This document shows, in pieces, positions 1 to 22,880 of a stretch of 32,000 nt of DNA. Both the position numbers and the translations under genes were made by a program. Each line of letters opens with the position of its first letter. The first letter of the stretch is position 1. This stretch comes from an uncultured archaeon. GTDB taxonomy: Archaea; Iainarchaeota; Iainarchaeia; Iainarchaeales; Iainarchaeaceae. The notes under the pieces are model-generated. The model did no database searches. It was not told where the DNA came from and was given only the letters and a program-made list of their open reading frames with translations. The stretch covers positions 2,979-34,978 of the forward strand of contig CAZNZM010000006.1 of NCBI GenBank assembly GCA_964577555.1, given 5' to 3'.

Positions 1-640
1 AATAGTTTTTTTTTAAGTCATTTTTTTTGTTTTTTTTGAGCCATTTTTTTTGACAATTTTTTTTAATTTTTTGTTTTGTTTGTTTTTGCAAGCCAAGTTT
101 TTTTTGTAGTCATTTTTTTTGTAATTAATTTTGTTTTTGTCTTTTGTTTTGGCTGGTTGTTTTTTTTGTTTTTTTTTGAATAGTTTTTTTTTAAGTCATT
201 TTTTTTGTTTTTTTTGAGCCATTTTTTTTGACATTTTTTTTAGATTTTTTTTTGAACTTTTTTTTTAATTTTTTTTGGCGAGCCATTTTTTTTGTCGTTG
301 TTTTTTTTGTGAGCTGTTTTTTTGGCGTATTTTTTTGTTTTTTTAGTTGATTTTTTTTTGGCAAACCACTTTTTTTTGTCATTTTTTTTGTTGGTTGTTT
401 TTTTTGTGTTTGTTTTGCGAGCCATTTTTTTTTAGATTTTTTTTGAACTTTTTTTAATTTTTTTTGCGAGCCATTTTTTTTAGACAATTTTTGTTTTTTT
501 TGTTTGGGTTTTGTTTTTTTTGTTAGCCGGTTTTTTTGTATTTTTTTTGTTTTTTTGCGACGATTTTTTTTGTCATTATTTTTTTGTTTTTTTTTTGATT
601 GGAATTTGTTTTTTTCTGCTTCGCGTTTTTTGAGCCAATA
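1..640 (+). repeat. T-tract array locus A, truncated by the window start. T runs of mostly 7-9 nt are separated by short words (AATAG, AAGTCA, GAGCCA, GCGAGCCA, AGACAA).
   Basis: Read directly. 1-55 is identical to 179-233. 240-293 is nearly identical to 433-481, differing only in T-run lengths and one G. 412-532 matches 22689-22793, and 466-532 matches 6785-6842. Confidence 0.9.
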
Positions 641-643
641 AAC

Positions 644-655
644 TTTATATATAAA
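644..655 (+). promoter_or_regulatory. TATA-box-like element (TTTATATATAAA) for the pilin-like operon
   Basis: An A/T-alternating box centred about 30 bp upstream of the ATG at 680. This spacing is typical of archaeal leaderless or short-leader promoters. It directly abuts the end of T-array A. Confidence 0.5.
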
Positions 656-679
656 TACTTCTTTTTCCATTTTAAAGTC

Positions 680-1240
680 ATGAAAAGTCAAAGTGGGCAG
701 GAATCCGCGGTTTTCGAGTTGTTGATAGCCATAATTGTAATGGGGTTTGTAATACTTATTGGCACAAATGCTCTTGAGACTCTTCAACAAAAAACTTGTG
801 AAGGTACTCTGAGCCAAAACCTTGAAGACATAAGAAGTGCAATAGAAACAGTTGTGAAAACCAAGGGCAAAGCCCAAGTAAGGTATGAACTTCCAAGTTG
901 TTTTAATCAACAAGAAAGTTCTTTGAGGATAATTGAAAGGCAAAGCGCAACTTTTTGCAGTGCTATTTGCGAAGGCACTATGAAAGAATGCACTGTATTG
1001 CAATTTACTTCGCCAGGATACAGCGAATCAAAATGTCTTCATATATCTTCTGCAACAAACTTTCCTGATGGCGAGCCTTGTAATAAGGACTTGCTTCAAG
1101 GAGGAAATTATAAAATTGTGAATTGGCGTTCCAAAGAAGGCATACTCCCTGGAAATTATATTCTTATGAGAGAATCATCTATTTTCCTTAAAAGCCCGGT
1201 TATTTGTGTTTATCAACGCGACTACGGGACGGTGAACTAA
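680..1240 (+). CDS. Type IV pilin-like protein with a class III (prepilin) signal peptide
   Basis: Internal ATG of ORF 599..1240. The N-terminus MKSQSGQESAVFELLIAIIVMGFVILIG has a short polar leader, a G-Q, and then a roughly 20-aa hydrophobic helix carrying an early Glu. The mature part is Cys-containing and secreted-like. The upstream part of the ORF lies inside the T-array. Confidence 0.7.
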   Translation: MKSQSGQESAVFELLIAIIVMGFVILIGTNALETLQQKTCEGTLSQNLEDIRSAIETVVKTKGKAQVRYELPSCFNQQESSLRIIERQSATFCSAICEGTMKECTVLQFTSPGYSESKCLHISSATNFPDGEPCNKDLLQGGNYKIVNWRSKEGILPGNYILMRESSIFLKSPVICVYQRDYGTVN

Positions 1241-1905
1241 TGCTTGGTTTCATTCTCAGCAAACTTAATTTGTTGATTTTGGTTACTTCAATATTTGCCA
1301 TAGTTTCATTTTTTGCATTAGGCCTTGGCGATATTACAAAAGTCAAGGAAGCAGGAGAACTTGCCACGAAATCTGTCGAAAAAGCCGCATCCATTGCAAA
1401 CAGCCCGGCTTCATGCGAAAGTTCTTATTTTCCTTTTCCTAGACAACTTAGGACTGCTGGAAGCAACTTCTATTATGTAGTAAAAATATCTAAGGGCGAA
1501 ATACAACGTGAAGGGAATAAAATTAATATTCTAATATTTGCAGTTTATCCGCGCGAAGAGGTCAAGAAAAAGTTTTTGTCATCATCTTATGTTCCAAAAG
1601 CAATTGCTGCTGACAGTTTCAGAACTAATTCAGATATATTTCTTTATGGGCTTGATTATCGCGGTTCTGGTTATATCGGGAATATAAGTGATGGTGTTTT
1701 ATCACCTCCTAACGAAATTTATATTGACCCACAAGCAGAGAACCCTATGAATGCACTGGTTTTGGTTAAAGAAGTTCAAGACGGCAAGAAAAAGTTTCAT
1801 GTTATTGGCTGTGAAGGAACAAGTTGTAACGCATACAAAACCCAAATAGGCAGTTTGGTTCATCCTGGAACTTCATTAAATCCTGAAGGTGGTTTTTTAT
1901 GCTGA
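1240..1905 (+). CDS. Pilus-associated or minor-pilin-like protein with an N-terminal hydrophobic helix
   Basis: The ATG at 1240 overlaps the upstream TAA (TAATG). The N-terminus is MLGFILSKLNLLILVTSIFAIVSFFALGLG. It is operonic with the pilin-like genes. I recognise no domain. Confidence 0.6.
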   Translation: MLGFILSKLNLLILVTSIFAIVSFFALGLGDITKVKEAGELATKSVEKAASIANSPASCESSYFPFPRQLRTAGSNFYYVVKISKGEIQREGNKINILIFAVYPREEVKKKFLSSSYVPKAIAADSFRTNSDIFLYGLDYRGSGYIGNISDGVLSPPNEIYIDPQAENPMNALVLVKEVQDGKKKFHVIGCEGTSCNAYKTQIGSLVHPGTSLNPEGGFLC

Positions 1906-2405
1906 ACAAAGGATTCATAGGCCCGGTTGGCGACGACATGCCTTCTCTTACGCCGTTGATTTTTGGCTTGCTCATGTTTTTTGGAGCCTTTACAACAGCT
2001 TTTACTTCGTTCAACCAAAGAAACTCGGATTTTTCTTCAGACATAGAAGTTCTGAAAATATCGAAACAATTGGAGTCAAATGGATATATTTACAGTTATG
2101 AAAACTTTCAGGATTTATGCAATCAAATAAATTCAACTAATATAAAATTCATGGCCGCCATAACTTCAGAAGCATTTGAAAGATCGAACAAAAGTACTAT
2201 TTTTGAAATAGTTTTTTATGGTACACCCAACAAATTCTATTGTACAAATTTTGAATCAGCAACACCAAATCCTGAACAATTCAAAGACATAATTGATATT
2301 CCAAATCTTTCTCAAAAAAAAGTGGTTTCAAGAGTAATTCCAATTGTTGTAGAGGATAACAAAATAGCTAAACCAATGCATTTGATGGTGATAGCGTGGA
2401 AATAA
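1899..2405 (+). CDS. Small membrane-anchored or secreted protein of the pilin-like operon
   Basis: The start overlaps the upstream stop (ATGCTGA). The N-terminus MLNKGFIGPVGDDMPSLTPLIFGLLMFFGAFTTAF has a K-G followed by a hydrophobic segment. This is a less canonical class III signal. Confidence 0.55.
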   Translation: MLNKGFIGPVGDDMPSLTPLIFGLLMFFGAFTTAFTSFNQRNSDFSSDIEVLKISKQLESNGYIYSYENFQDLCNQINSTNIKFMAAITSEAFERSNKSTIFEIVFYGTPNKFYCTNFESATPNPEQFKDIIDIPNLSQKKVVSRVIPIVVEDNKIAKPMHLMVIAWK

Positions 2406-3220
2406 AAAAAACAAACCAAAAAGGCCAAGCAGCGGTAACAGACGCTCTTTACTTTTTGATGATTGTTACTTTCCTTTCAATTTTTCTTTTCGGCTTCGGC
2501 AACACTTATGGAAATTCTGTAAGGTCTGGAATATCTGATGAAGCTGACACTTCGTTTGTAACCAATGCACTAAAATCCATACTTTATAGTTCCACTCCTA
2601 GAGATACAAAACAATCAATATCAGATCCAAACGTTGAAATAGATTCGTTGCTTGCATTAATAAAAGAGGATTATGCGGATGATGAAACCATAGGCTCGGA
2701 AGAGCGCGAAGTTTTCGCAAAAACAATTTCTTCAATAATGTCTCCAGTTCAAGATACAAAGGATTACATATTGACACTTTCAATACCTCCAGAATCGGGC
2801 AGAAGTTCAAAATACATATTCGTTTTCATTCATACTACAAATTTTTTGCGTGAAAGAGCATTTGACAAATATGGAAAGCTTCTTCCAAAAAGTTTTGCAT
2901 ACTATAAGCCGGATGAAGCCAAACCACACATTGATTATTTTTGCGGCTTGAATAATTCTGACTTTGCCCAAATCCATAATAACATAAAAAAATTGGTTGC
3001 TAATGTTGGACCTACTTCTCAAGCATCAGCATCAATAAAAATGATAAAACACGCTACTTTTTTGGAAAAATACAACGCCCAAATAGACCTTATAGTGTGG
3101 GATGCAACATGGCTTGGAAAAACAGACGACGTGGCTGACGGAATTTTATACGATTCTGACCCAAAATCACCTTATGCTGATTGGGGTTGTTTAGAAGCAG
3201 GGACGACAAAACTTCCATGA
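2396..3220 (+). CDS. Type IV pilin-like protein with a class III signal peptide (KGQAA motif)
   Basis: A GTG start overlaps the upstream gene by 10 nt. The N-terminus is MEIKKTNQKGQAAVTDALYFLMIVTFLSIFLFGFG, with a basic leader, KG/Q, then a hydrophobic helix. Confidence 0.7.
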   Translation: MEIKKTNQKGQAAVTDALYFLMIVTFLSIFLFGFGNTYGNSVRSGISDEADTSFVTNALKSILYSSTPRDTKQSISDPNVEIDSLLALIKEDYADDETIGSEEREVFAKTISSIMSPVQDTKDYILTLSIPPESGRSSKYIFVFIHTTNFLRERAFDKYGKLLPKSFAYYKPDEAKPHIDYFCGLNNSDFAQIHNNIKKLVANVGPTSQASASIKMIKHATFLEKYNAQIDLIVWDATWLGKTDDVADGILYDSDPKSPYADWGCLEAGTTKLP

Positions 3221-3240
3221 TGTTAAACCATTGATTTTGA

Positions 3241-3625
3241 AACAGTATTTTTTTTATAAGCTGTTTTTTGCGGCATTTTTTTAGACATTTTTTTTGTTTG
3301 TCTTTAGTTTTGTTTGGCTTTTTTGTTTTTTTGTTTGTTTTTTTTGAATTATTTTTTTGCTTGGTATTTTTTTGTTTGAAACTTTGTTTTTTTTGTGAGC
3401 CGTTTTTTTTATTATTGTTTTTTTTGTGAGTTGATTTTTTTTATTTTTTTAATTTAACTTGTTTTTTTTGAGCAGTTTTTTTTAGTTTTGTTTTTTTGTT
3501 TTTATTTGTTTTTTTTGGCAAATCTGTTTTTTTTGCCACCTATTTTTTTTAATTGAAATTTGTTTTTTTTTGCGAAAAAATTTTTCGAATTGTGATTTTT
3601 GTTTATTTTGCAGTTTTTTTGTTTT
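3241..3625 (+). repeat. T-tract array locus B, between convergent genes
   Basis: T7-T9 runs are separated by GCGGCA, AGACA, GTGAGCCG, GTGAGTTGA, GAGCAG, GGCAAATCTG and GCCACCTA. Same orientation as locus A. Confidence 0.85.
3573..3587. terminator. Near-palindrome CGAAAAAATTTTTCG, a candidate bidirectional oligo-T terminator
   Basis: It gives T5 on the + strand and T6 on the - strand. It is the first run of at least 5 T that a transcript of the minus-strand gene ending at 3626 would meet. Archaeal RNA polymerase terminates at oligo-dT. Confidence 0.4.
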
Positions 3626-4366
3626 TTACCTGTTTTTCCTTTTTCTGAATTCTGCTCCGCATTTCGGGCAAGTGTATTTCAAAGATTCCGCTTGGACTTC
3701 AACAGATTTTGCGCAATGGTCGCAGAAAGCTTCCCCGCATTTAGGACAATAAATGAGTTCTTCTGACTTGTTTCCACATCTCGGGCAAACATTGAGGCCT
3801 GTTTCTATTTCCTTGTCAACCATGTCAAATTCATCTTCTGACAAATTGTCTTCAAGCGATGAAAGTTCGTCTATCTCTGCCAGTTTTTGTAAATTTTCAT
3901 TGTCCGTATCAATATGTTCTATTTCTTGTGATTGTTCAACTTCTAAATCATCTTCAAAATTATCTTCATTTTGAATGTTTTCAATTTTTTCTTCGTCTTC
4001 AGTTTGTTCCAAAACTTTTTCTTTTTGTTTTTCTTGCCAATCCTTTTCATCTTTCTTTTTTTTTCTTTCTTCCTTTCTTTTTTCAAGCAAATTTTCTTTG
4101 GCTTCCGGCTTTTCAAACCCGCCTAAGTCTATATCATCTTCAAACTCGTTTTTTTCTTCTTTGTCGTTTTCGAATTCCTTTTTCAACAATTCATATACAT
4201 TTTCAGCCATTTTGTTTATCTCATCTTTATTTGGATATCTGTTGTTTTGTTTTACGAATTCGTCAACTTTGTTTATTGCTATTTGTGTGCTTCGTTCTTT
4301 AATTTCAGTTTCGCTTGGTTTTTTTCTATAGAATCTTTGCAGTCTTCTAGGTATATCTTCCGTCAT
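3626..4366 (-). CDS. Acidic/charged protein with a C-terminal double zinc ribbon
   Basis: The C-terminus is CPRCG..CPKCG..CDHC..CPKCG (8 Cys in CxxC pairs). The central region is E/D/K-rich. The start forms an ATGA overlap with the stop of the upstream gene 4363..6084. Confidence 0.75.
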   Translation of the reverse strand: MTEDIPRRLQRFYRKKPSETEIKERSTQIAINKVDEFVKQNNRYPNKDEINKMAENVYELLKKEFENDKEEKNEFEDDIDLGGFEKPEAKENLLEKRKEERKKKKDEKDWQEKQKEKVLEQTEDEEKIENIQNEDNFEDDLEVEQSQEIEHIDTDNENLQKLAEIDELSSLEDNLSEDEFDMVDKEIETGLNVCPRCGNKSEELIYCPKCGEAFCDHCAKSVEVQAESLKYTCPKCGAEFRKRKNR

Positions 4367-6084
4367 TTTGAAGTCACGCTCTCCTGAAGTATTTTTTTCA
4401 ATAGCATTGCGGATTTTGGCATTACTTTATAAGCTTCAATATTTTGCTTTTTCTGTTTTAGCTCTTTTGTTCCAAGTTTTTCCCTGAGGCTTTCAATGAT
4501 AAATCTTTTTGAATCGTTTATTTCTTCTTCTATTTTATCTTTTGTTTTGATTTGTTTTGATTCTTCAGCCTTCTTTTTTTCAATTTCTATCATTATTTTG
4601 TCAATTTGTTTAGTGTCTTTTTTCATGATTTCTGATGTTTCTATTTGTTTTCCAAGAGATTTCAACTGGTTTTCCTTCTCCTGAACTTGCTTTGTTTCTT
4701 CAACTTTTGAAGTATTTTGAATAATTTTCTTGAGTTCCATTATTTTTCCCAATTTTTGCGGCTCTATTTCAATTTTGTCAATTCTGGTATTTTCTTTTTT
4801 TTGTTCTAATTTTGTTGTCTTTTTAACAGGTTGCTCTGTTTTACTGGCTTCGATTTTTAAGTTTTTGGCTGGCTCTTCGCTTTTTGTTGTTTTTGTTACT
4901 TCTTTGATTATGTTTTTTTCTGAATCTGGTTTTTCAGTGTTTTTTGCGGGTTCTTGTATTTTTGTTTTATCAATTGTTTCTTGTTGTATTGGTTTTTTTG
5001 AAATCATTTCGAAAAATTCTTTTAGAATTCCTTTGTTAGGCTTTTTTTCTTCTTTTGGTTTTGCAATTTCAGCTAATTTTTCGGTTTCTTTTTTTTGTTC
5101 TTGAATGTTTTGTGTTTTGGCAGTGGTTTGTAAAATAGCTTCTTTTGTTTCTTCAAGTTTTTTTGAAAACAAATTGGTTTCTTTGGTTGCTTCTTTAACT
5201 TTTATTATGTTTAATTCCTTTTCTTTTTTTGTTTCTGGTTTCAAGATTTTTGGTTGATTAAGTTCAATTTTTTCGTTTTGTTTTGTTGCATTTTGGCTCG
5301 GTGTTTTTTGTGTTGTTTGTTTAATTTCGTTTTTTGTTTTTTCTTGGGTTTTTGTTGGTTGTATTTTAGGTTCTTCTTTTGGAGATTGTTTTTCTGTTGT
5401 TATTAATATTTGTTCTTGCTGATTTTTAGGTTTTTTTTCAATTTCTAGTATTGGTTTTTCCATGTTTTTTTGTGGTTTGTTTATTATTGGTTTTGTATTT
5501 TCTTTGATTTTTTTCTTGAGGCTTTCTGTAAGTTCTTCAGGCATTTCCGGTTTCGTTTCTGCAAGTGTTTCAAATGTTTCAACTTCTATTTGGTTTTCGG
5601 TTTGGTTTGACAGTTGCGCTGGGTTTACTGGTGTTTTTATGCCTTCAATCAATATGTCTTTTATGTAATCTTCTTCAGGTATTTTTTCCATTGCTTTTTT
5701 GACAATAAGGTTTGCGACTAATGCTCTTTTTGGCACTGAAACTATTACCTTGTTTTTTCCGAAGTATTTTCTTTTGATGGAAAAAATTATAGTGCCAGTG
5801 GCAATAGTGCATATTGGCGCTATAAAAAGCATTTCCATGAAAGTTATGTTGTTTGGAAAAGTCAGTGTTACTGCTGTTGCTACGGCTATGGTGGAAATTG
5901 TGAATCCTGCTCCGCTTATTATTCCCCACCCTGTTTTAGTTTCTGTTTCCAATTTGCGTATTTTTGGCCAGCCGGAGCGCAAAAAAAGGTAGCCGACGCT
6001 TTGTCCTCCGATAAGGACATATGCTGCTAAACAAGTTTCAATAGCAGTTGTAACAGGTATTGGTATCATGCCTGCACTAAACAT
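4363..6084 (-). CDS. Membrane protein with about 4 N-terminal TM helices and a roughly 440-aa K/E/T/Q-rich low-complexity tail
   Basis: 573-aa ORF. The hydrophobic N-terminal ~110 aa are followed by a long charged region of lysine, glutamate, threonine and glutamine. It is translationally coupled to the zinc-ribbon gene. Confidence 0.7.
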   Translation of the reverse strand: MFSAGMIPIPVTTAIETCLAAYVLIGGQSVGYLFLRSGWPKIRKLETETKTGWGIISGAGFTISTIAVATAVTLTFPNNITFMEMLFIAPICTIATGTIIFSIKRKYFGKNKVIVSVPKRALVANLIVKKAMEKIPEEDYIKDILIEGIKTPVNPAQLSNQTENQIEVETFETLAETKPEMPEELTESLKKKIKENTKPIINKPQKNMEKPILEIEKKPKNQQEQILITTEKQSPKEEPKIQPTKTQEKTKNEIKQTTQKTPSQNATKQNEKIELNQPKILKPETKKEKELNIIKVKEATKETNLFSKKLEETKEAILQTTAKTQNIQEQKKETEKLAEIAKPKEEKKPNKGILKEFFEMISKKPIQQETIDKTKIQEPAKNTEKPDSEKNIIKEVTKTTKSEEPAKNLKIEASKTEQPVKKTTKLEQKKENTRIDKIEIEPQKLGKIMELKKIIQNTSKVEETKQVQEKENQLKSLGKQIETSEIMKKDTKQIDKIMIEIEKKKAEESKQIKTKDKIEEEINDSKRFIIESLREKLGTKELKQKKQNIEAYKVMPKSAMLLKKILQESVTSK

Positions 6085-6113
6085 ATTTAAAGAACTTAAT
6101 AAATTATTGTCTT

Positions 6114-6653
6114 ATGCCTGTTTCAGTGTTTGAAGTAATATTTGGTTCTATTGTGTCCTTGCTAAAGGGAAGTTTTTTTGTTGCAATTCCTCTTTTTTTC
6201 TTGATTTTGCTTGGTTCGATCATAAGAAAAAAAATTGAGAAAGAACTCAAATGGAATTGGATTTTTAGCGCTTTTTTTACCACTTATTTTATATGTTCAA
6301 TAGGACTTATTTTTGTTTATTTTGTCCCGGTTATAGAATCGCTTCGCGAACAATCGCTTGGCGAAATACCTTCTACTGTTGCCATTTCCTTTGGCACGAT
6401 TGTTTTGGCATTTCTTTATAATGCGTTCAAAGTGTTTTTTTCAGCACTTGTTCTTTCTTTGCTTTTAATGCCGTTGGAACTTGTTGGTCTTTACATGCAT
6501 TCTTTCTTTTTGCAAAAAATGAAAAAAGCTCCGAGAATTTTAGTGTTGGCTCTTACTGTTTATGCAATTTCTATTTTTTCCTCTTTTGTAATTCTTTTTA
6601 TAATCCCTGAATCAGTAGTCGGTTTTATTTACTTGCTTTTTTTCGGTTTTTAG
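6114..6653 (+). CDS. Small polytopic membrane protein (about 5 TM), function unknown
   Basis: 179-aa ORF of hydrophobic segments separated by short basic loops. It is divergent from 4363..6084 across only 29 bp. No peptidase A24 (prepilin peptidase) Asp motifs are seen. Confidence 0.65.
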   Translation: MPVSVFEVIFGSIVSLLKGSFFVAIPLFFLILLGSIIRKKIEKELKWNWIFSAFFTTYFICSIGLIFVYFVPVIESLREQSLGEIPSTVAISFGTIVLAFLYNAFKVFFSALVLSLLLMPLELVGLYMHSFFLQKMKKAPRILVLALTVYAISIFSSFVILFIIPESVVGFIYLLFFGF

Positions 6654-6654
6654 A

Positions 6655-6985
6655 ATTTATTTTTTGCGTTGCTTTTTTTTTAGTTTAAAATAAATACAAA
6701 TTATTTTTTTGTCTTTGGCTTACTTTTTTTTGCGAAAGATTTTTTTTGTTGCTTCTTTTTTTTAGTCGGATTTTGTTTTTTTTGGTGAGCCATTTTTTTA
6801 GACAATTTTTGTTTTTTTTTGTTTGAAGTTTTGTTTTTTTTTCATTTTTTTGTGAGCAGTTTTTTGATGTTTTTTTGTCAGATTTTTTCTTTTTTTTGTT
6901 TTTTTGATTCAGAATTAACTATTTTTTGCGATACGATTATTTTTTTTGTATTTTTTGTCAAAAACTTTTTTGTTGTTTTTTGGTC
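6655..6985 (+). repeat. T-tract array locus C, between two + strand genes
   Basis: It contains the core copy GGTGAGCCA-T7-AGACAA-T5-G-T9-GTTTGAAGTTTTG-T9 at 6785-6842, matching 466-532. Same orientation as the other loci. Confidence 0.85.
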
Positions 6986-7107
6986 AATGCAAGAAATGCC
7001 AATAAATTTCCATGCAAACAAATAAATAGCCTGTAAACCAACTATTATTTGTTAAATAATTTTGATTAATTAATGGATTAATTAAATGTTTTTTTTGTCG
7101 TGGTTGC

Positions 7108-12470: not shown

Positions 12471-12606
12471 CACTTAGAATTTTTTTGTGTTGAATAATTA
12501 TTTTAAGAATAAAATTTTGTATTTTGTAAAAAGAATTTCTAAAATAGTTTTTTTGTTTGTTTATTATTTTGTTAAAAAATTTGATTAATCAGCCAATTGC
12601 CAATAA

Positions 12607-13488: not shown

Positions 13489-13710
13489 GCTATAAAATTG
13501 GATTTTTCGTTTAATAAACTTATTTATTTCAATAAAAATTTCTGTCTAATTTATTATGACTCTTTCTTTTAGAATTGGATTTTAAATCATGTTTGATTGA
13601 CTGATTTGTCAAATAACAGCTCCAAAATTGTTTTTTTTCAGTTGCAAATAAAATAATCTTTTTTAATGTCCTGTTTTTTTTTGCTTTGAATGAAACGCAA
13701 AATATGATTT

Positions 13711-14454: not shown

Positions 14455-14582
14455 AAAAAATCTTTTTTACATTTAGGTGGTTAAAACTTATATACTTTTC
14501 CACGATGTTTTTGCTTTTGCCGAAATTTTTTTTGAGCGAAAATAATTTATATTTGTTAAACCCATTATTCAGTCCGATAAAT

Positions 14583-15242: not shown

Positions 15243-15267
15243 AAACCTTTAACATGGTTTTAATTTT

Positions 15268-15283
15268 AAGGGGGGCACCCCTT
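15268..15283 (+). terminator. GC-rich hairpin AAGGGG-GGCA-CCCCTT followed by T tracts
   Basis: Perfect 6-bp stem with a 4-nt loop, 26 nt after the stop at 15242. ACTTTTTCTTTTTTTTT follows immediately. It is the only G/C-rich island in this spacer. Confidence 0.5.
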
Positions 15284-15403
15284 ACTTTTTCTTTTTTTTT
15301 GTCTTTTGCTCTTTTTTTATTTCTTTTGTTCCATATAGCTTTTTTTTGAGCCAATTTTTTTTTAATAGTTTTTTAATTTGAATTAAATTTGTTTTTTGAT
15401 TTT
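15284..15403 (+). repeat. T-tract array locus D (short), between convergent genes
   Basis: It contains GC-T8-GAGCCAA-T9-AATAG-T6, reusing the GAGCCA and AATAG words of locus A in the same orientation. Confidence 0.75.
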
Positions 15404-16228
15404 TTAGAACCCTTTTATAAAAAAATAAACAATAAAACCTGCTATTAAAAGAATAATCGCATATAAAAATGATTTTTTTGGCCTGCTCTCCTGAAAGCCT
15501 AAAAAAATTGAAGATATAATGGCAAACTCCGCTATGTAAATAATGCTTCCAATTTCTGCAGCATTCAGAAGTTCTTTTCTTGTAACTTCGTTTGCTCCTA
15601 TTCCCAATTCATTTATTCCTGAAAAATCCATTTTGAAAACCATGCTTGTAACCATTGCAAACACAAACGGAACTATTATGCATGATGCTATTATTGTGTA
15701 TTTTTGTAGCGACATTGCAGCCATTCTTTCCCTTGTTATTGAATTTGTTTCAATGAAATCCTCGGCTGTTTCCCTGAATGCTTTGCTCATATCCGCGCCA
15801 GATTTTATTGAATTTATTATCATTCCAATAGACCTTGAAAGCCCTTTTGAAGAATTTCTTTCAGAAATTTTTTCTAGTGCTTCTTCAGGCGGCATTCCTA
15901 ATTCAATTCTGTTTTTCGCCAGATTGAATTCTTTTTTTAATGGGCCATTAGAGTTGTTTGATATAAAATCAACTAGTTTGTCTATTCTTGCATTGTCAGG
16001 AATTGAAGATGCAAGAAGCAACATGTCTGGAATTTCATCTTCTATTTGTCTTTGTCTTTCTTCCTCAGCCAATTGAAACTTCAGATGCTTTAATGCCAAT
16101 GGAATAAATAATGCAATTATTGAAAGCATGATTATTTTTTCGCTTTTAAATATTTCAATCCCGATAATTAAGAATGCTATTGAAAATAAAACACCAGAAA
16201 TAATTTCGTCCTTGCTTGTTTTGAACAT
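15404..16228 (-). CDS. Type II/IV secretion system F-domain platform protein (TadC/FlaJ-like half)
   Basis: 274 aa. N-terminal TM helices precede a cytoplasmic helical domain (IPDMLLLASSIPDNARIDKL...GMPPEEALEKISERNSS...IKSGADMSKAFRETAEDF), followed by C-terminal TM helices. This is a single T2SSF-type domain. Confidence 0.75.
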   Translation of the reverse strand: MFKTSKDEIISGVLFSIAFLIIGIEIFKSEKIIMLSIIALFIPLALKHLKFQLAEEERQRQIEDEIPDMLLLASSIPDNARIDKLVDFISNNSNGPLKKEFNLAKNRIELGMPPEEALEKISERNSSKGLSRSIGMIINSIKSGADMSKAFRETAEDFIETNSITRERMAAMSLQKYTIIASCIIVPFVFAMVTSMVFKMDFSGINELGIGANEVTRKELLNAAEIGSIIYIAEFAIISSIFLGFQESRPKKSFLYAIILLIAGFIVYFFIKGF

Positions 16229-16229
16229 T

Positions 16230-16961
16230 TCAATTTCCTCCTAAAGGAGCAATCGATTTTATGTAAAGCAATATTGCGCAGTCAATACAAGGAAATATGA
16301 TGCTTGTCAAAGCCAAAATCATTTTTCCATTTATTGAAAAATCAATGAATGAACTTCCCACTATTATGAATGAAATTGAAAGCGCAGGAACCACTGCCGA
16401 AATTACTATAAATAATAGTGAAAGTGCGGACATTTTTCCAGTGTATTCTTTTATTTCCGCTTTTTTTCTACTTAACAATTCCATTGCAAGTTTTTTTATG
16501 CCGGAACCTTGTTTTTTTCCTCCGTGTTCATAAATTGAAATTACTTGTGCAAAAGCCCTTTTCACAATTTTTGAATTTGATTTTGCGGCAAATTTGGCTA
16601 GCATTTCTTTAAGCGGTTCACCGGACGCTTTTGCGGATGAAATGCAATTTCCAAGCAGTATTGAAAATTTTCCGTATTTTGATTCGGCAAGCCTTTCCAA
16701 AGCTCTGTCCGGCGGAATGCCTATGTTAAGTTCAAGGCTAAGTTGCATAAGTGCAAAAGGAAGTTGTGCTTCAATTTCTGCTGCATCACGCCTTAATTTT
16801 CTTTCAGTTTCTGTAAAAAAGTAAAAGAATGTTGTTGTCATGCAAATTATTCCTATAATTATTGATGTGTAAATATCGTCAAAGAATAATTCGGACGCCA
16901 AAAACCCAATTATAAAAGCCAGAATTGATTTTTTGAAAGAGCTTTCGATTTTCAAATTCAT
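16230..16961 (-). CDS. Type II/IV secretion system F-domain platform protein (TadB/FlaJ-like half)
   Basis: 243 aa with the same architecture (LPFALMQLSLELNIGIPPDRALERLAE...SAKASGEPLKEMLAKFA...). Its stop abuts the start of the downstream gene at 16228. Confidence 0.75.
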   Translation of the reverse strand: MNLKIESSFKKSILAFIIGFLASELFFDDIYTSIIIGIICMTTTFFYFFTETERKLRRDAAEIEAQLPFALMQLSLELNIGIPPDRALERLAESKYGKFSILLGNCISSAKASGEPLKEMLAKFAAKSNSKIVKRAFAQVISIYEHGGKKQGSGIKKLAMELLSRKKAEIKEYTGKMSALSLLFIVISAVVPALSISFIIVGSSFIDFSINGKMILALTSIIFPCIDCAILLYIKSIAPLGGN

Positions 16962-16967
16962 TTTTTT

Positions 16968-18422
16968 TCAACCTTCATTGTATTGTTGTATTGAATTGAA
17001 GTATTCTTCCCCAGTTTTTCCTCGTAATGTTTCCAAGAATTTGCTTCTTTTTTCAATCTCATTTATTATTTCTTTTTTCGGCATGTTGAAAGAATTTGAT
17101 ATTTTTTCAATCGTTTTTTGTCCAATTGATTTGATTTTGAAAGATTTTTTTTTGAAGTCATAAGAAAAAATTTTTTTTATACAGATTCCATTTTTTGTCA
17201 TTAAAGGCTCCGCTATTTCAATTAGTTTTCTTTGTTCGTAATGTCTTCCTTCTTGGTTAACCGTCCATCTTTTTTGTGTCAACACCAAATCCAATGCTGC
17301 TACATCCATTGGCATTGCCCCTAATTTGATTAACCTTGTTATCGCTTCATTTGCTGATTGTGCATGGAATGTTGAATAAGTTCCTTTTCCTTGCCCGGCA
17401 AGCAAGGAATCTATATAAGCCAGTGTTTCTTTTTTGTCCCTTATTTCCCCTACAATAACCCTGTCTGGTCGCATCCTTAAAGTGTTTGTCACTAGCTCAG
17501 CCATGCCTATTTCTATTCCTTCAGCGGTGTTCATTCTAATACAATGCTGGTGCATGATTGATATTTCCGGTGTTTCTTCAACTATTACAATTCTTTCGTT
17601 TTCCGGAATGAAATTCATTATACTGTTTAACAAAGTTGTTTTTCCAGAACCTGTATTGCCGCACACCATTATTGAGCAATCTGATTGTATTGCAAGCCAA
17701 AGGAAAGCCATTTGTTCAGAGGAAGCGGAGCCAAGCCTTATGATTTCTGTAGGAGTTGGCACGTTTGCCCTGAATTTTCTTATCGTAACAGATGGTCCGG
17801 AATTAGTTATTGGGTTCATGCATGCATTGAGTCTTGAACCGTCTGGAAGGCTGGCATTGATTTTGGGTTTCATAAGAGTCACCCGCCTGCCAAGGCTTGA
17901 ACCAAGCGCATTAACTATGTTTTTGACTTCTTCTTCGCTTGAAAAGTAAATATTGGATTCAAGCCATCCGAAATTCGAGTCAAAGACATAAATTGGTTTG
18001 GCTCTGCCAAGCCCTATGACTGCTATTTCTTCCAGCAACGGATCGCAAAGAAAAACACCAAGTATTCCATGAGAAGAAACCATTTCCGAAAGGCATCTTT
18101 TTAAGTAAATTTTTTGGTTGTCTTCAAGGTCCAGCCATTTTGATTTGCAATATTGTATAAAAAATTCGCTTGCGCCTTTTTCTGCAACAATTTTTCCCGA
18201 ATCCCTGAATACTTGCAATGCCGATTTCAGAAGCCTTGCTTCGTCCAAGCTTAGACAAGGAATTGATTTTTGAATGTAAATAGTTTTTCCGTTTCTAAGC
18301 CTTGTTATGTCCCTTTCTTCAGAAGACGAAACCACTATTTCTATTTCTTCTTCCGCAGGACTGAAGACCCGCCAACCAAGTATTTTCTCTATTTCTGCTG
18401 ATTCAAAATCCGACAAACCCAT
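16968..18422 (-). CDS. Type II/IV secretion ATPase (FlaI/PilB/VirB11 family)
   Basis: Walker A GNTGSGKTT, an acidic box VIVEETPE, and a Walker-B region RMRPDRVIVGEIRD. 484 aa, lying 6 bp upstream of the platform genes. Confidence 0.9.
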   Translation of the reverse strand: MGLSDFESAEIEKILGWRVFSPAEEEIEIVVSSSEERDITRLRNGKTIYIQKSIPCLSLDEARLLKSALQVFRDSGKIVAEKGASEFFIQYCKSKWLDLEDNQKIYLKRCLSEMVSSHGILGVFLCDPLLEEIAVIGLGRAKPIYVFDSNFGWLESNIYFSSEEEVKNIVNALGSSLGRRVTLMKPKINASLPDGSRLNACMNPITNSGPSVTIRKFRANVPTPTEIIRLGSASSEQMAFLWLAIQSDCSIMVCGNTGSGKTTLLNSIMNFIPENERIVIVEETPEISIMHQHCIRMNTAEGIEIGMAELVTNTLRMRPDRVIVGEIRDKKETLAYIDSLLAGQGKGTYSTFHAQSANEAITRLIKLGAMPMDVAALDLVLTQKRWTVNQEGRHYEQRKLIEIAEPLMTKNGICIKKIFSYDFKKKSFKIKSIGQKTIEKISNSFNMPKKEIINEIEKRSKFLETLRGKTGEEYFNSIQQYNEG

Positions 18423-18470
18423 ACTATTACGTCAATCAACGAAATATTTTTATTTGGTTTGTGCTTTTAG

Positions 18471-18836
18471 TCACCATTTCAATTTATCCCCTATTTTTAT
18501 TTTGTTCCCCAATTTTTTTGGCAATTCAATAAAATATTTGGCTGGTTTTTTTGGAGTATAATTTAAAGTCCATGGTTTTAATGTTGCTTTGTCCACCACT
18601 TTTTTGTTTTCGTCAAGAAAGATAATGTCTATTGGAAAGAAAACAAACAACATATGAACGCTTGCCCTAATCCTTGTTTTGTAGCCAAGTGTAAAAATAA
18701 GTGCATAATCAAAATTTTTTTCACTCTCCAACATTAATCCTTTAAATTTTTCAAAAAAAGTTTTTGCAAACTTGGTCTTTTTGCAAATAATTTTTCCATT
18801 TGCGCCTGAAAATTTTAGAGACATTTCAGCCCTCAA
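18471..18836 (-). CDS. DUF192-like small protein
   Basis: 121 aa. The FKGLM...HMLFVFFPIDIIFLDENKKVV...AKYFIELP pattern resembles the DUF192/COG1430 family. Confidence 0.6.
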   Translation of the reverse strand: MRAEMSLKFSGANGKIICKKTKFAKTFFEKFKGLMLESEKNFDYALIFTLGYKTRIRASVHMLFVFFPIDIIFLDENKKVVDKATLKPWTLNYTPKKPAKYFIELPKKLGNKIKIGDKLKW

Positions 18837-18839
18837 AAA

Positions 18840-19067
18840 TCAGTTTTTCTTTTCTTTACGCTCCCTTATAATCTCAATTTTAGGAATTTTTATTTCTTCA
18901 AGCAAGTCTGAAGGCCTTATTGCACCACTATTTTGTTCTCTCTCTATCTCTTTTCTTATCCCATCTATTTCTTGCATTTTAACCTGCATTTCCTCAAGTA
19001 TTTTTTCCATTGCTTTTCTCCTTTCTTGAAGCTCTAAAGTATTTCCTTTACCCATATACCTTAACAA
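18840..19067 (-). CDS. Small charged coiled-coil protein; the start could alternatively be at 19055
   Basis: 75-aa ORF rich in E/K/R heptad-like sequence, 3 bp upstream of the DUF192 gene. No motif recognised. Confidence 0.45.
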   Translation of the reverse strand: MLRYMGKGNTLELQERRKAMEKILEEMQVKMQEIDGIRKEIEREQNSGAIRPSDLLEEIKIPKIEIIRERKEKKN

Positions 19068-19110
19068 AATGCGTTGCTGAATAAATAACTTTTGGATTGG
19101 CCACTATAAC

Positions 19111-19308
19111 AATTTTTTTTGCAATTTGTTTCTGTCAAATGATTTTTTTGCCATGAAGAGCCAAAAGTGTTTTTTTGCTGGTTGTTTTTTTGTTCTGCAA
19201 GCCGTATTTTTTTTAGCAATTTTATTTTTTTAAGTTTTGATTTTTTTTGTTTTGTCTTGGCTTTTTTGAGTCTTTTTTTGTTGGTTTTTTTTCACGTTTT
19301 TTTTATAG
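19111..19308 (+). repeat. T-tract array locus E, in a divergent region upstream of the tRNA
   Basis: T7-T8 runs are separated by GCAA, GCCATGAAGAGCCAAAAGTG, GCAAGCCGTA and AGCAA. GCAAGCCGTA-T8-AGCAA-T4-A-T7 is a degenerate copy of the GAGCCA-T8-AGACAA core. Confidence 0.75.
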
Positions 19309-19423
19309 TTTCTCGTTCCAAACTAAAAGATAACATTATAAAATTTGTTTTATGCTTAGGATCTTTGGTAATCCTGCAAATTAGCTAGGTTGCAGGGTTG
19401 GATTTATTGCAAATTAAAGTTAT

Positions 19424-19551
19424 AGCCCCGTCGTCTAGCGGCTAAAGAAATTCAGTTTAGTAAATTTTTTAACAATTTGAAAAATTGATTTCTGTCGAAA
19501 GGATGCGAGCCTCTGGAGCTCGAAACCCCGGTTCGAATCCGGGCGGGGCTA
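19424..19551 (+). tRNA. tRNA-Gln: tRNA-Gln (anticodon CTG) with a roughly 55-nt intron at a non-canonical position in the D-loop / D-stem junction
   Basis: Acceptor AGCCCCG (19424-19430) pairs with CGGGGCT (19544-19550), with discriminator A. T-arm is CCCGG-TTCGAAT-CCGGG. Anticodon arm is CGAGC-CTCTGGA-GCTCG (19506-19522). D-stem is GTCT (19433-36) with GGAT (19501-04). About 55 extra nt lie between AGCGGCTAA and GGAT. A T9 tract follows. Confidence 0.85.
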
Positions 19552-19601
19552 TTTTTTTTTGAAATCTCTCTATAGAAAATTTAATTAATACATGCATTGT
19601 A

Positions 19602-19883
19602 ATGAATATCATGAAGTTCAAGTATTGTCCACAATGCGGTTCAATGGATATAAAAGTAAATGCGTTGAAACAAGAGACTTGTGAAAGGTGCAGGTATTCA
19701 GGCTCAATGAATGAAGGCGCAATGGATGAAATAAACAGATTTCAAAAATCCCTTAAATCTGGCGCAAGAGGAAATTTGAATAAAAACGAATTTTTGTCGC
19801 AAAAAATAGATTCAGCTTCTCAACTTAAAGAAAAAATGAAATCACTCAAAGGCAGAACAACTGACGATTTTGAAATAATTTGA
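19602..19883 (+). CDS. Small zinc-ribbon protein
   Basis: 93 aa with N-terminal CPQCG...CERC (a four-Cys ribbon) and a charged C-terminal tail. A/T-rich TATA-like sequence lies upstream. Confidence 0.6.
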   Translation: MNIMKFKYCPQCGSMDIKVNALKQETCERCRYSGSMNEGAMDEINRFQKSLKSGARGNLNKNEFLSQKIDSASQLKEKMKSLKGRTTDDFEII

Positions 19884-19893
19884 AGGTGAAAAG

Positions 19894-20253
19894 TTGGGCA
19901 TGGTAATAAGGAATGAAATTTTTCCACTACGAGCAAAATTGGGCAACAAGACTCAGTTGGAACTTTCTGTTGAGATAGAGAACGAAGATGACAAATCAAA
20001 AAAAATAAGCCTTGAAATAGAATTGCCCAAAGAAGCAACTTTTAATCCATTATGGACTAACACCATTTACAAGAAAAAATTTGATAATTTTAAGCCTTTT
20101 GAAAAATTTAAAGTCAAAATTCCGATTTACCTTTCAAGAATGGCTGAAGCAGGAAATTACAAAGGAAACATAATTGTTTGCGAGCATTTTAACGAATTCG
20201 GAGTTGTTGAAAGGGTGTTTAAGAAGGAAATCCTTTTCAGAATTGTCAATTAA
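19894..20253 (+). CDS. Hypothetical protein (119 aa)
   Basis: The ORF starts 10 nt after the previous stop and has ordinary coding composition. No motif recognised. Confidence 0.5.
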   Translation: MGMVIRNEIFPLRAKLGNKTQLELSVEIENEDDKSKKISLEIELPKEATFNPLWTNTIYKKKFDNFKPFEKFKVKIPIYLSRMAEAGNYKGNIIVCEHFNEFGVVERVFKKEILFRIVN

Positions 20254-20289
20254 ATTCCCAAAGTTTTTTGAACTTACTTAATTTTTTAA

Positions 20290-21372
20290 TTATTTAAAAT
20301 CCAAAATGCTTTTTTGTTTTTCTGGCGCTGATAACCCAGATATTCCGATTCCAAATCTTCTTGCAACAAAACCTGGTTTTTCCGAAAAAAATTCTTCTAT
20401 CAAATTTTTGGAAACTTTGATTATATCTTCGCTTTTTTGTGATGCTTTTTCAATTGTTTTACTTCTTGTGAAAGATTCCAGTTTGTTTGAAATAATGGTA
20501 ATTGAAATTGTTTTGAAAGTTTTTCTCAATTCAATGCATTTTTTTTCAAGTTCAAAAGAAATTGTTGGCAAATATTCAAAAATTTTTTGAGGGTTTGAAG
20601 TATTTTCTTTTAGTGTAATAATTCTTGAATATTGTTGTTGTTCCTTTTCCTCTACAATGCTGTCATCAATCCCATTGGCTTTTTCATGCAACATTTTTCC
20701 TTTTTTTTCCCCAAAAAGTTCTACAAGTTTTGGCAATTGAGTTTTTGCTAATTGAGTAATTGTTTTTATTCCTTGCTTTTCAAGTTCTTCAACTGTTTTT
20801 GGCCCCACTCCTTGCAAATCTGAAATGCTTTTGGTTCTTAAAAATTCTTGTACATAGCTTGGAATAATAACCGTGAGACCATTAGGTTTTTTTGTTTCTG
20901 AAGCCATTTTTGCTATCAATTTGTTAGGACCTATTCCAATAGAACAAGTTAATAATTCTTTTTCAAAAACCTCTTTTTTTATTTCCTTGGCAAGTTTTTC
21001 CGCATCAACAAAACTTCCTTTAACAGACTCTGAAATATCCAAATATGCTTCATCAATGCTTGTTTGTTCAAATTTTTCACCTTTTTGTCTTATTATGTCC
21101 ATTACTCTGTCTGAAACTTGTTCATAGTATTGCCTGTCTGCTTTGAGCAAAACCAATTCTTTTGATTTTTGTTTTGCAATGGATATTGGCATACCAGCCT
21201 TTATACCCAAAGCCCTTGCCATGTAATTTGAAGTTGCTATTGCACCTGAAAATTCGCTTCTTCCAGAAAACATGCAAACCGCAATCGGCTTGTTTTTAAG
21301 CTCCGGCGACCTTATTTCTTCAGCTTGCGCATAAAAATAGTCCAAGTCAATATGCATTATAACTCGTTGCAT
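20290..21372 (-). CDS. dinB: Y-family DNA polymerase IV (Dpo4/DinB)
   Basis: N-terminus MQRVIMHIDLDYFYAQAEEIRSPELKNKPIAVC plus SIDEAYLDIS and the HhH-like region LQGVGPKTVEEL. Start set at the internal ATG 21372, because the ORF-track start at 21450 would overlap the upstream gene by 43 nt. Confidence 0.9.
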   Translation of the reverse strand: MQRVIMHIDLDYFYAQAEEIRSPELKNKPIAVCMFSGRSEFSGAIATSNYMARALGIKAGMPISIAKQKSKELVLLKADRQYYEQVSDRVMDIIRQKGEKFEQTSIDEAYLDISESVKGSFVDAEKLAKEIKKEVFEKELLTCSIGIGPNKLIAKMASETKKPNGLTVIIPSYVQEFLRTKSISDLQGVGPKTVEELEKQGIKTITQLAKTQLPKLVELFGEKKGKMLHEKANGIDDSIVEEKEQQQYSRIITLKENTSNPQKIFEYLPTISFELEKKCIELRKTFKTISITIISNKLESFTRSKTIEKASQKSEDIIKVSKNLIEEFFSEKPGFVARRFGIGISGLSAPEKQKSILDFK

Positions 21373-21407
21373 GAAATAGTGTTGCTTTAATAGTTTTTTA
21401 AATGCAA

Positions 21408-22562
21408 TCAAGTGAGAATGAATTTTATGGCTTCTGGAAATAGACGCCAAAGTGAAGGAGTTGCCATTGCTTTTTCTAAAAACTTTGAAGGTTTGTCCAT
21501 GTCGCCATAATTTGAGAGAAATTCCCCAACATTAGCCTTATTCATTCTTCTTATTAGTTCGTCTATTTGATTTTCGTTTTTATTGTTTATGAATTGCCTT
21601 ATTTTCCAATGCAATATAAGTTCATGGTTTATTTCTGAAAGATATTTTTCATAATTTTCCAAAGGTTCTTTGTCTTTGAAAAATTTGTGAACTGCGTCGC
21701 CCGCTATGTTGCCTGCAAGCATTCCTATTATTATTCCCCCGCCAGTTGTCGCTTTTGTTTGAAACGCGGCATCCCCAACAAGCAAAATATTGTCTTTCAC
21801 TATTTTTTTTAGAGGTTCTCCGCATGGAATCAGTTTGCTACACATATCACAAAATTCGCCTGAAATGTTTTTGTCTTTTGTAAAAATATCAAAGTCACGC
21901 CTTATGTTTCCAGAAGTGCTTGCAAGCCCTACACGTGCCTTTTCCTCGTTTTCCGGAACAACCCACGCAAAATAATTTTTTGCATAATCCCCAAAAAAAA
22001 CTTGCACATAATTCTTGTCAAAATTGCCTTTTGCCACAACTTGATAGGCATGGACATAATTTTTTATGTCAGTGTTTATTCCGATTATTTTTCTTGTTTT
22101 GGAATTCACTCCATCTGCACCTACCAAAACCTTGGTTTTAAGAAGCTCTCCCCTGCCTTTGTGTTCAACAAAAACCGTTTCATTTCTAATGTCTATCAAT
22201 TTGGTTTCAGTCTTTATTTTCACACCTGATGCAATTGCTCTTGACGCCAAAGCCCTGTCAAATTCACCTCTATTTATTACATAAGCTACTGTTTCGCTTT
22301 TCTTCACTTCAAGCATTTCCTGTCCAGGAGAAAAAATTCTGGCTCCTCGGATTTTATTCACTAAAGTGTCTTCGACTTCTTTTCTTATTCCAAGTTCACT
22401 AACCCCTGAAGCGCTTATCAATCCAGTACAAGCTACAGGTTCGCCTATTTTTGGATGCTCTTCTATTACTATTGTTTGCCATCCTCTTTCTTGTATCCTT
22501 TTTGCAGCCGCAAGCCCTGCAGGTCCAGCTCCTGCAACACAAACCATTGTTTGTTCAGCCAT
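21408..22562 (-). CDS. Geranylgeranyl reductase-family FAD-dependent oxidoreductase (archaeal lipid saturation)
   Basis: Dinucleotide-binding N-terminus VCVAGAGPAGLAAAKRIQERGWQTIVIEEHPKIGEPVACTGLIS, later LLVGDAAFQTKATTGGGI, and a length of about 384 aa. Confidence 0.8.
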   Translation of the reverse strand: MAEQTMVCVAGAGPAGLAAAKRIQERGWQTIVIEEHPKIGEPVACTGLISASGVSELGIRKEVEDTLVNKIRGARIFSPGQEMLEVKKSETVAYVINRGEFDRALASRAIASGVKIKTETKLIDIRNETVFVEHKGRGELLKTKVLVGADGVNSKTRKIIGINTDIKNYVHAYQVVAKGNFDKNYVQVFFGDYAKNYFAWVVPENEEKARVGLASTSGNIRRDFDIFTKDKNISGEFCDMCSKLIPCGEPLKKIVKDNILLVGDAAFQTKATTGGGIIIGMLAGNIAGDAVHKFFKDKEPLENYEKYLSEINHELILHWKIRQFINNKNENQIDELIRRMNKANVGEFLSNYGDMDKPSKFLEKAMATPSLWRLFPEAIKFILT

Positions 22563-22639
22563 TATTTATTCAAACTGATAAAACTATAAAAATTCAACTA
22601 TTCCCAGGATTTAAAAATAAATTTGTTGAAAAACAACGA

Positions 22640-22880
22640 AATAGTTTTTTTTTGAATTATTTTTTTATTTTGTTTTTTTGTTTTTTTTGTTTTGCAAGCC
22701 ATTTTTTTTAGTTTTTTTTTGAATTGTTTTTTTTGTGAGCGTTTTTTTTAGACAATTTTTGTTTTGTTTTATTTTTGGAGTTTTGTTTTTTTGTGAGCCG
22801 TTTTTTTGCCATTTTTTTGTGAACTTGTTTTTTTGTTAACGATTTTTTTGCTTTTAGGGAATATTTTATTTTTTTTATGA
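22640..22880 (+). repeat. T-tract array locus F, between two minus-strand genes
   Basis: 22689-22793 aligns word for word with 412-532 (GTTTTGC[A/G]AGCCA-T8-AG-T9-GAA..-T8-G[T/C]GAGC.-T8-AGACAA-T5-G...TTTTG-T7/8). It begins with AATAG-T9-GAATTA, as do loci A and B. Confidence 0.9.

Follow-up and report, generated by a model that had tools for sequence, protein, structure and literature searches.

Hypervariable oligo-T minisatellites of a single polarity fill long intergenic spacers in an AT-rich DPANN lineage

Introduction

Why should the long intergenic spacers of an archaeal genome be filled with runs of T, all on the same strand, whichever way the neighboring genes point? The question is raised by a stretch of 32,000 nucleotides from an uncultured archaeon (GenBank assembly GCA_964577555.1, contig CAZNZM010000006.1, positions 2,979 to 34,978), which we call the window and number from its first base. 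Six of its spacers had been singled out, in a prediction made from the letters alone (the original prediction), as arrays of T runs of 7–9 nt joined by a small set of shared words. We analyzed these six (arrays A–F) together with a seventh, array G, which lies downstream on the same contig. In structure and evolution we describe all seven, with high confidence, as hypervariable minisatellites of oligo-T. They occupy the long spacers between genes in a single AT-rich lineage of DPANN archaea (Diapherotrites/Iainarchaeia-like). They resemble known kinds of element, oligo-T terminators and minisatellites, in a form that we did not find described in the literature searched.

Results

Runs, words, and repeats

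The length of the T runs is tightly constrained. Across the seven arrays run lengths are bimodal and peak sharply at 8 (thirty-nine T7, sixty T8, nineteen T9, and two T10). The 118 runs of 7–9 nt, which bear out the original description, compare with 28.0 ± 4.6 (maximum 41) in 1000 composition-preserving shuffles, and runs of ten or more are depleted (2 observed vs 10.3 expected). On the + strand, the six window arrays are 60–67 per cent T, 12–16 per cent A, 8–16 per cent G, and 5–9 per cent C. Runs of T on the minus strand are almost lacking inside them; the entire window has 175 runs of at least seven T and 44 of at least seven A. All 118 T7–9 runs, in all seven arrays, have the sequence of archaeal U-tracts (at least 4–5 T on the non-template strand), and the arrays also contain the A:T runs of at least 7 that poly(dA:dT) elements require. 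Spacing from run to run is irregular, with a median and mode of 15 bp and no 10–11 bp component. Curvature through helically phased A-tracts was rejected on these grounds.

The first base of the words that separate the runs is G in 104 cases, A in 40, and C in 10. As predicted, the vocabulary is small and recurring: fifty-two 5-mers are present in at least three arrays, vs 29.6 ± 4.7 in composition shuffles, and none of the 1000 shuffles reaches 52. GAGCC and AGCCA each occur in six of the seven arrays, and GAGCCAT7 (at most one mismatch) has ten matches where 0.85 are expected. The words had been given as 1–10 nt long, but some reach ~20 nt.

Larger units are layered on this pattern. Tandem Repeats Finder (TRF) reports unit sizes of 12–16, 31–58, and 95–178 bp with 65–90 per cent matches, so that the arrays have the head-to-tail tandem units of ~10–100+ bp by which minisatellites are recognized. 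Positions 1–481 of array A form a higher-order repeat of period 178 (2.6 copies, 78 per cent matches), with additional periods of 95 and 105; the periods are 31 and 47 in array B and 58 and 100 in array F. Sequence is also shared between loci. The 23-mer TTTTTTTAGACAATTTTTGTTTT is found exactly in arrays A, C, and F (expected 0), within an alignable core of ~70 nt common to the three. The copy in A (456–525, + strand) reads GAGCCA-T8-AGACAATTTTTG-T8-GTTTGGGTTTTG-T8, the copy in C (6774–6846, +) is near-identical to it for ~60 nt, and the aligned core in F lies at 22724–22796 (+).

Neither RNA structure nor coding accounts for the arrays. A search against Rfam gave no match, folding was no better than that of shuffles on either strand (z = −1.54 and −1.57), and inverted repeats are nearly absent. 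Given these results and the irregular spacing, we rejected structured RNA, clustered regularly interspaced short palindromic repeats (CRISPR), and miniature inverted-repeat transposable elements (MITEs); the near lack of inverted repeats also rules out hairpin-type terminators or MITE ends as the basis of the arrays. A 270-aa open reading frame (ORF) on the minus strand across array A was rejected as a real gene because it runs antisense through the pilin gene and has no 3-nt periodicity, and long ORFs are missing from the other arrays. Annotation by the Joint Genome Institute (JGI) nonetheless calls lysine-rich ORFs on the A-rich strand at 191–670 (−), ~3441–3539 (−), and ~6878–7021 (−) (coordinates converted from contig L215), and a 159-aa JGI ‘gene’ spans array A. 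Such calls are almost certainly spurious, given their antisense overlap with the pilin promoter or gene and their lack of codon periodicity.

Positions and gene contexts

The gene contexts of the window arrays are those originally given. Array A (1–640, + strand) has at least forty-two runs of six or more T and is truncated by the window start; it stops 4 nt short of the TATA box of the pilin operon, which it had been said to abut. Array B (3241–3625, +; twenty-two T runs) separates the convergent pilin operon (+) and Zn-ribbon gene (−), while array C (6655–6985, +; twenty-one runs) lies between tandem + genes, 5′ of the promoter of the gene for a 1507-aa protein. The context of array D (15284–15403, +; six runs) is again convergent. 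Array E (19111–19308, +; eleven runs) lies between the divergent promoters of a 71-aa minus gene and a tRNA, and array F (22640–22880, +; fourteen runs) lies between tandem minus genes for an fn3 protein and a geranylgeranyl reductase. Array G (+) is found ~14 kb past array F, between divergent genes, at 16215–16590 of contig L001 (window-equivalent ~36.9–37.3 kb), and draws on the same word set as the others. Beyond it, further arrays are absent out to window-equivalent 48 kb, a region of tightly packed glycosylation operons.

Arrays D and E are weaker than the rest. The distances between arrays are irregular, from 3 to 14 kb, and together the arrays occupy ~8 per cent of the first 23 kb. The stop codon of a + gene immediately precedes each of arrays B, C, and D, and arrays A, C, E, F, and G each end close to a core promoter. 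The arrays had also been proposed to delimit surface-gene modules; they do fill long spacers, but seven arrays are too few to show such an association. Other spacers were said to be free of arrays. This is true of 13489–13710, yet that spacer carries a T8 and a T9 on the + strand, and most non-array spacers also have T > A (ten of fourteen on the + strand).

Strand polarity

The + strand is the T-rich one in seven of seven arrays over ~37 kb, so the co-orientation predicted for the six window arrays extends to array G. It is the same for arrays between convergent genes (B and D), tandem + genes (C), divergent genes (E and G), and tandem − genes (F). With ten of ten GAGCCAT7 words also on the + strand, the arrays have the one-strand bias irrespective of gene orientation that marks the FtsK orienting polarized sequences (KOPS) and architecture imparting sequences (AIMS) of bacteria.

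The DNA around the arrays is asymmetric as well. At fourfold sites, + genes have a coding-strand GC skew of −0.22 and − genes one of +0.22 (Mann–Whitney p = 0.0004); the + strand therefore has C > G at these sites whatever the gene orientation, and the skew keeps its direction out to 48 kb (contigs L001 and L217). The syntenic regions of the array-less relatives L212–L214 do not have this fourfold-site asymmetry, though they share a slight excess of T over A on the corresponding strand. To judge from these sequences, the skew appears to be specific to the present lineage. Within genes, A/T runs of five or more favor T on the + strand, the A-run fraction of the coding strand being 0.59 in + genes vs 0.80 in − genes (Fisher p = 2.5e-4 with K/E-rich genes excluded; Mann–Whitney p = 0.012). 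Inside the arrays, the + strand has G > C, opposite to its neutral C > G background. Background mutation pressure therefore fails to explain their G-first words, which are kept up either by copying or by selection.

Support from independent assemblies

Dense homopolymers invite the suspicion of an artefact, which the original prediction had named as a possible refutation. The window matches JGI contig Ga0394875_0000575 (66.5 kb) with an offset of 130 bases. Over the arrays that each contig covers, array sequence is 100 per cent identical, every T-run length included, in JGI 3300037501, 3300043177, and 3300043267 and in Logan SRR12686701, which were built with different assemblers. One observation could be read the other way: the JGI contigs begin at window position 131 and the Logan contig at 561, so that both break inside array A, and short-read contigs tend to end within arrays A, B, C, F, and G. 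Ends of this kind indicate repeats that confuse assemblers, not invented sequence. Three JGI samples and one Logan run agree base for base, and a sister species recovered from different samples has related yet non-identical arrays at equivalent sites; there is next to no chance of a homopolymer assembly or sequencing artefact, and we exclude assembly artefact as the source of the arrays. Gene order is constant across all the contigs recovered, and no assembly shows a gene cassette deleted or duplicated between arrays.

Turnover and distribution

The sister species (~87 per cent nucleotide identity, 36 per cent G+C) was recovered from five other samples. Its arrays are of the same kind, orientation, and vocabulary, though very different in size at equivalent sites, with 2- to 6-fold differences at D, E, and F. 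Site E, ~200 bp long in the window, is a 55-bp seed with two T7 and two T5 runs in the sister species; site F is ~240 bp in the window and consists of T4–5 runs in ~40 bp in the sister species; and site D measures 120 bp with 6 runs in the window and 270–300 bp with 17 runs in the sister species. Change is visible even between two strains of the sister species that are 99.4–99.6 per cent identical. Between them, T-run length has changed four times over the proximal 110 bp of array D, where there is no substitution, and over the distal half no alignment is possible. The 5.9 kb of flanking sequence has twenty-two substitutions and two indels. With run lengths and blocks that differ between strains, the arrays behave as variable-number tandem repeats (VNTRs). 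The window’s own population showed no array length variation among the four assemblies.

These comparisons of species and strains indicate that the arrays arise from small T-tract seeds and lengthen or contract at their own sites. They slip often, turn over blockwise, and exchange patches between loci. Run length is nevertheless confined to 7–9 despite frequent slippage. Restriction to one lineage and rapid turnover are thus observed, as are the architecture, the tandem hierarchy, the block sharing, the co-orientation, and the neutral-site skew; termination and a link to replication are inferred. The tandem hierarchy, the restriction to one lineage, the growth from seeds, and the region-wide neutral-site skew go beyond the original prediction.

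Arrays are absent from syntenic distant relatives (ATPase 51–56 per cent identical; 37–53 per cent G+C). When T7-GAGCCA-T7 was sought in GTDB species genomes, which is a weak test, there were eighty-six matches, all of them single and by chance, and no array; two Woesearchaeota matches are coding sequence for KKWLKK. Among the matches listed in a metagenome scan for AGCCA-T7-N-T7-N-T7 were eukaryote-like low-complexity contigs, but this pattern also fits poly-T and missed the source contig. One of its matches (L191) was rejected as an array because it is coding sequence of a K-rich protein. Two scans of viral contigs gave chance matches alone, and a protein search seeking other arrays with the K-rich ORF called on array A gave no matches. 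In the literature searched, nothing comparable was found for archaea, DPANN included, under either oligo-T or poly-T arrays, which agrees with the original statement that no described element of this architecture was known to its author.

Two sequences from other organisms bear some likeness to the arrays. Positions 152–275 of L166 (BNJS01001290.1, a 2.08-Mb contig with 23 per cent GC) hold a short array of A7 runs with words of 4–11 nt, superficially similar in architecture and from an unrelated organism. In a relative with 49 per cent GC (L226), a motif resembling CTTTTTCTTTTGGYACAGC is present four times at ~4385–4490, beside a tRNA, and once more at ~120–150, just 5′ of the start of geranylgeranyl reductase. 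The CTTTTTCTTTTGGYACAGC-like motif may be a GC-richer counterpart, on the opposite strand, of the module of T run plus G-first word.

Host and neighboring genes

The window is archaeal, with ~33 per cent G+C. It encodes type IV pilin-like proteins with class III signal peptides, a pilus ATPase with two T2SSF-type membrane subunits, a PAC2 proteasome chaperone, a geranylgeranyl reductase, a DinB-type polymerase, and sugar-nucleotide genes. Homologues of the ATPase carry the source labels Diapherotrites, Iainarchaeum, or Micrarchaeota, and because of these names we assign the host to the DPANN archaea. The TATA-like box of the pilin operon, tttatatataaata, lies at 644–657 (+), immediately 3′ of array A, with the operon’s ATG at 680; the N-terminus of the product resembles a class III signal peptide.

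Two inverted repeats occur in or beside arrays. The palindrome CGAAAAAATTTTTCG at 3573–3587 contains the sole minus-strand T run within array B and is a candidate terminator, by prediction, for the minus gene at 3626–4366. A hairpin at 15267–15284 (+; TAAGGGG-gcac-CCCCTTA) heads array D directly 3′ of the stop codon of an MscS-like gene and is kept in the sister species (L218). It is G+C-rich, is followed by T5 and T9, and resembles a bacterial terminator.

Between 3626 and 6084 (−) lie two adjacent minus genes, for the Zn-ribbon protein and for a 573-aa protein that the original prediction called K/E-rich. The + strand is strongly T-rich over these 2.5 kb, with AT skew down to −0.62. This T-richness is coding composition, not an array, and repeat finders report weak array matches there.

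The tRNA next to array E (19425–19548, +) contains an intron, an insert of ~45–50 nt in the D-arm region, and is most likely tRNA-Gln(CUG). It went undetected by ARAGORN in default mode and by Rfam at the gathering threshold; in E-value mode, positions 10–63 of the Rfam tRNA model match 19494–19543, and ARAGORN reports Gln(ctg) once the insert is removed by hand. A similarly split tRNA is present in the 49-per-cent-GC relative L226 (~4495–4640, −). The interval from the DinB polymerase gene to the pilus-motor operon is an insertion hotspot in distant relatives (L212 2730–5081; L213 3458–8589; L226 2633–4273), where its cargo includes a HinfI-type restriction–modification pair, PIN/RHH and HicB toxin–antitoxin pairs, and a LAGLIDADG gene. 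In the window, this interval contains just two small ORFs and the tRNA.

Discussion

What would such arrays do? Our preferred explanation, held tentatively, is a composite one, in which the arrays would be amplified U-tract terminator minisatellites that act as one-way barriers, with a polarity set by a replication-linked asymmetry. Archaeal terminators have U-tracts of 4–7 nt; in Methanococcus maripaludis a greater number of U4-tracts gives higher termination efficacy and stronger binding of aCPSF1, and efficient binding needs a minimum of two such tracts (PMC8716108). The basic module of the arrays, a T7–9 run followed by a short G- or A-first word, matches an archaeal U-tract terminator in the form of its sequence. 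From the 2005 work of Braglia et al., a purine 3′ of the T run reportedly strengthens eukaryotic Pol III terminators, an effect that would match the G- and A-first words.

Slippage, together with the tandem duplication of 12–180 bp blocks, would have multiplied the module at each site, and patches would have been copied from array to array. A rightward RNA polymerase would then encounter six to more than forty successive U-tract stops and a leftward one essentially none, and the arrays would insulate promoters and antisense targets against rightward read-through. Their direction would be set not by adjacent genes but by a strand-asymmetric process acting over at least 48 kb, most likely the direction of replication. 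This could come about if expansion were limited to seeds with the T-rich strand on one side of the fork, or if selection were to block transcription in one fork-relative direction only (e.g. where rightward is head-on). The parts of this explanation differ in strength. One-way terminator function, read from sequence alone, is possible but falls short of probable, and a replication link behind the polarity is somewhat more doubtful still. We think it unlikely that the arrays belong to a genome-wide set of replichore-polarized one-way transcription barriers, with polarity flipping at origin and terminus; a system of this kind would stop transcription in one fork-relative direction, such as head-on read-through or divergent antisense transcription, and would be a means, not described before, by which archaea manage transcription–replication conflicts.

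Rightward terminators or insulators had been the first function proposed for the arrays. It is still the best functional reading and fits B, C, and D, where a same-strand transcription unit lies upstream. The start of the window truncates array A, and E, F, and G have no + gene to terminate, which confirms that a plain terminator role is insufficient, as originally argued. Minus genes elsewhere have ordinary own-strand tracts of T5–8 (12575–12580, 24474–24481, and the palindrome at 3573–3587); normal terminators therefore point both ways, and the arrays are additional to them. G-first words against a C > G background, together with a run length held at 7–9, are evidence of constraint.

Several points weigh against the composite explanation. 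A + gene to terminate is found at only three of seven arrays (B, C, D), with E and G between divergent promoters and F after a minus gene. No requirement beyond a few U-tracts per terminator is known to us; six to forty or more runs look excessive and favor neutral or selfish expansion. The replication link comes from one contig of ~48 kb, for which seven co-oriented arrays have p ~0.016 under random orientation. The signals also disagree, with arrays that are G+T-rich on the + strand (classical leading-strand-like) but fourfold sites that are C > G on the same strand, and part of the intragenic homopolymer bias may come from Phe-rich membrane proteins. Finally, arrays were not found elsewhere in this genome or in a second lineage by searches in which both large scans were uninformative.

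The excess of runs leads directly to the strongest rival, which we nevertheless consider rather unlikely: that the arrays are neutral or selfish minisatellites without function. Oligo-T seeds would expand by slippage and unequal exchange in an AT-rich and maybe repair-poor genome, and the polarity would be a mutational by-product of strand-asymmetric replication errors. Fast, erratic size changes among species and strains, a tandem hierarchy typical of minisatellites, and a run number far above what termination requires all suit this account, as does the lineage-specific skew at neutral sites; syntenic relatives without arrays, moreover, show no sign of needing them. It does not explain why run length is held at 7–9 although slippage is frequent, or why arrays with G > C and G-first words persist against the C > G neutral background of the same strand. 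DPANN genomes are normally compact, and an array share of ~8 per cent of the first 23 kb is hard to square with neutrality. A second rival is a role in chromatin or nucleoid boundaries, where poly(dA:dT) would resist wrapping by archaeal histones, free promoters and gene ends, and halt the spread of hypernucleosomes. Poly(dA:dT) disfavors nucleosomes, as is established in eukaryotes and reported for archaeal histones; the arrays offer rigid T8 tracts about every 15 bp, and five of them (A, C, E, F, and G) stop next to a core promoter. But exclusion of this kind is independent of strand and leaves strict co-orientation and G-first words unexplained, and there is no 10–11 bp phasing. We give boundary elements a low probability.

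Polarity is what would recommend replication elements proper, either start zones for primase or polar fork-pausing sites, placed on one template strand per replichore. Archaeo-eukaryotic primases start well on oligo-dT templates, and strand invariance is strict over at least 37 kb despite gene orientation, with a neutral-site skew on the same strand. Taken at its classical sign, though, the GC skew puts the T runs on the leading-strand template, the wrong strand for priming, and arrays 3 to 14 kb apart are irregularly spaced, so that this role seems slightly less probable again than that of boundary elements. A further rival is that the arrays are contingency loci, in which slippage of T runs would toggle promoters, or recombination between direct repeats would delete or duplicate surface-gene cassettes. 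Near-identical strains do differ in run length; blocks of ~60 nt are near-identical and in direct orientation in A, C, and F; and pilin, adhesin-like, and fn3 genes are nearby. Phase variation, one of the functions originally suggested, is nonetheless not supported within the population: a phase-variable tract is located in a promoter spacer or coding sequence and is heterogeneous in length, while these tracts lie 5′ of the TATA box, outside the TATA-to-start spacer, and their consensus lengths are all equal in four assemblies of the population, with differences only between strains of the sister species. The original suggestion of recombination is borne out in part, in that near-identical blocks and quick turnover agree with it, but gene order is the same in every recovered contig, without cassette loss or gain. 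Contingency loci are accordingly very improbable.

If the arrays are one-way terminators oriented by replication, this archaeon arranges its transcription stops by chromosome polarity, which would provide a sequence-level handle on transcription–replication conflicts in archaea. Gene-strand bias is weak in archaea, and such conflict has been little studied there. Even if neutral, the arrays mean that a streamlined DPANN genome can bear large, fast-evolving minisatellites. They would then serve as strain-level markers, with run lengths and block content that differ at 99.5 per cent identity, and would be a practical hazard, since they break short-read assemblies and draw spurious calls of lysine-rich ORFs.

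Among known systems, the arrays share strand bias with KOPS/AIMS and Chi, which are likewise completely biased over tens of kilobases, independent of genes, and accompanied by compositional skew. Those, however, are single 8-mers scattered in genes and read by FtsK or RecBCD, whereas the arrays are long and intergenic; the KOPS/AIMS class is moreover defined by a flip of polarity at origin and terminus, and the arrays were read over ~48 kb of one contig. The poly(dA:dT) tracts of yeast, Plasmodium, and Dictyostelium are also dense A:T homopolymers in promoter-adjacent intergenic DNA, but occur in both orientations and broad lengths, in contrast to the cap at 9–10, the fixed polarity, and the recurring words of the arrays.

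Two likenesses go further. Minisatellites and VNTRs have the same nested head-to-tail repeats, fast copy-number change, and patchy homogenization between loci. The arrays differ in that their unit follows a grammar, with a T run and then a word that varies, in place of one fixed sequence, in their single strand polarity at all loci, and in making up ~8 per cent of 23 kb in a very small archaeal genome. Archaeal U-tract terminators, including the multi-U-tract ones of M. maripaludis assisted by aCPSF1/FttA, resemble the arrays in having at least 4–5 T on the non-template strand, and the M. maripaludis ones come from a host that is AT-rich, as the array host is, and gain efficacy and aCPSF1 binding from clustered tracts (PMC8716108). 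Known archaeal terminators have one to a few tracts in ~30 nt and follow gene orientation; the arrays have six to more than forty tracts over 120 to more than 640 bp, with longer and tightly sized runs (7–9), and ignore gene orientation, as E, F, and G lie without a + gene upstream. To judge by their sequences, then, the arrays resemble stacked archaeal U-tract terminators in how they are predicted to work, and minisatellites in how they appear to evolve.

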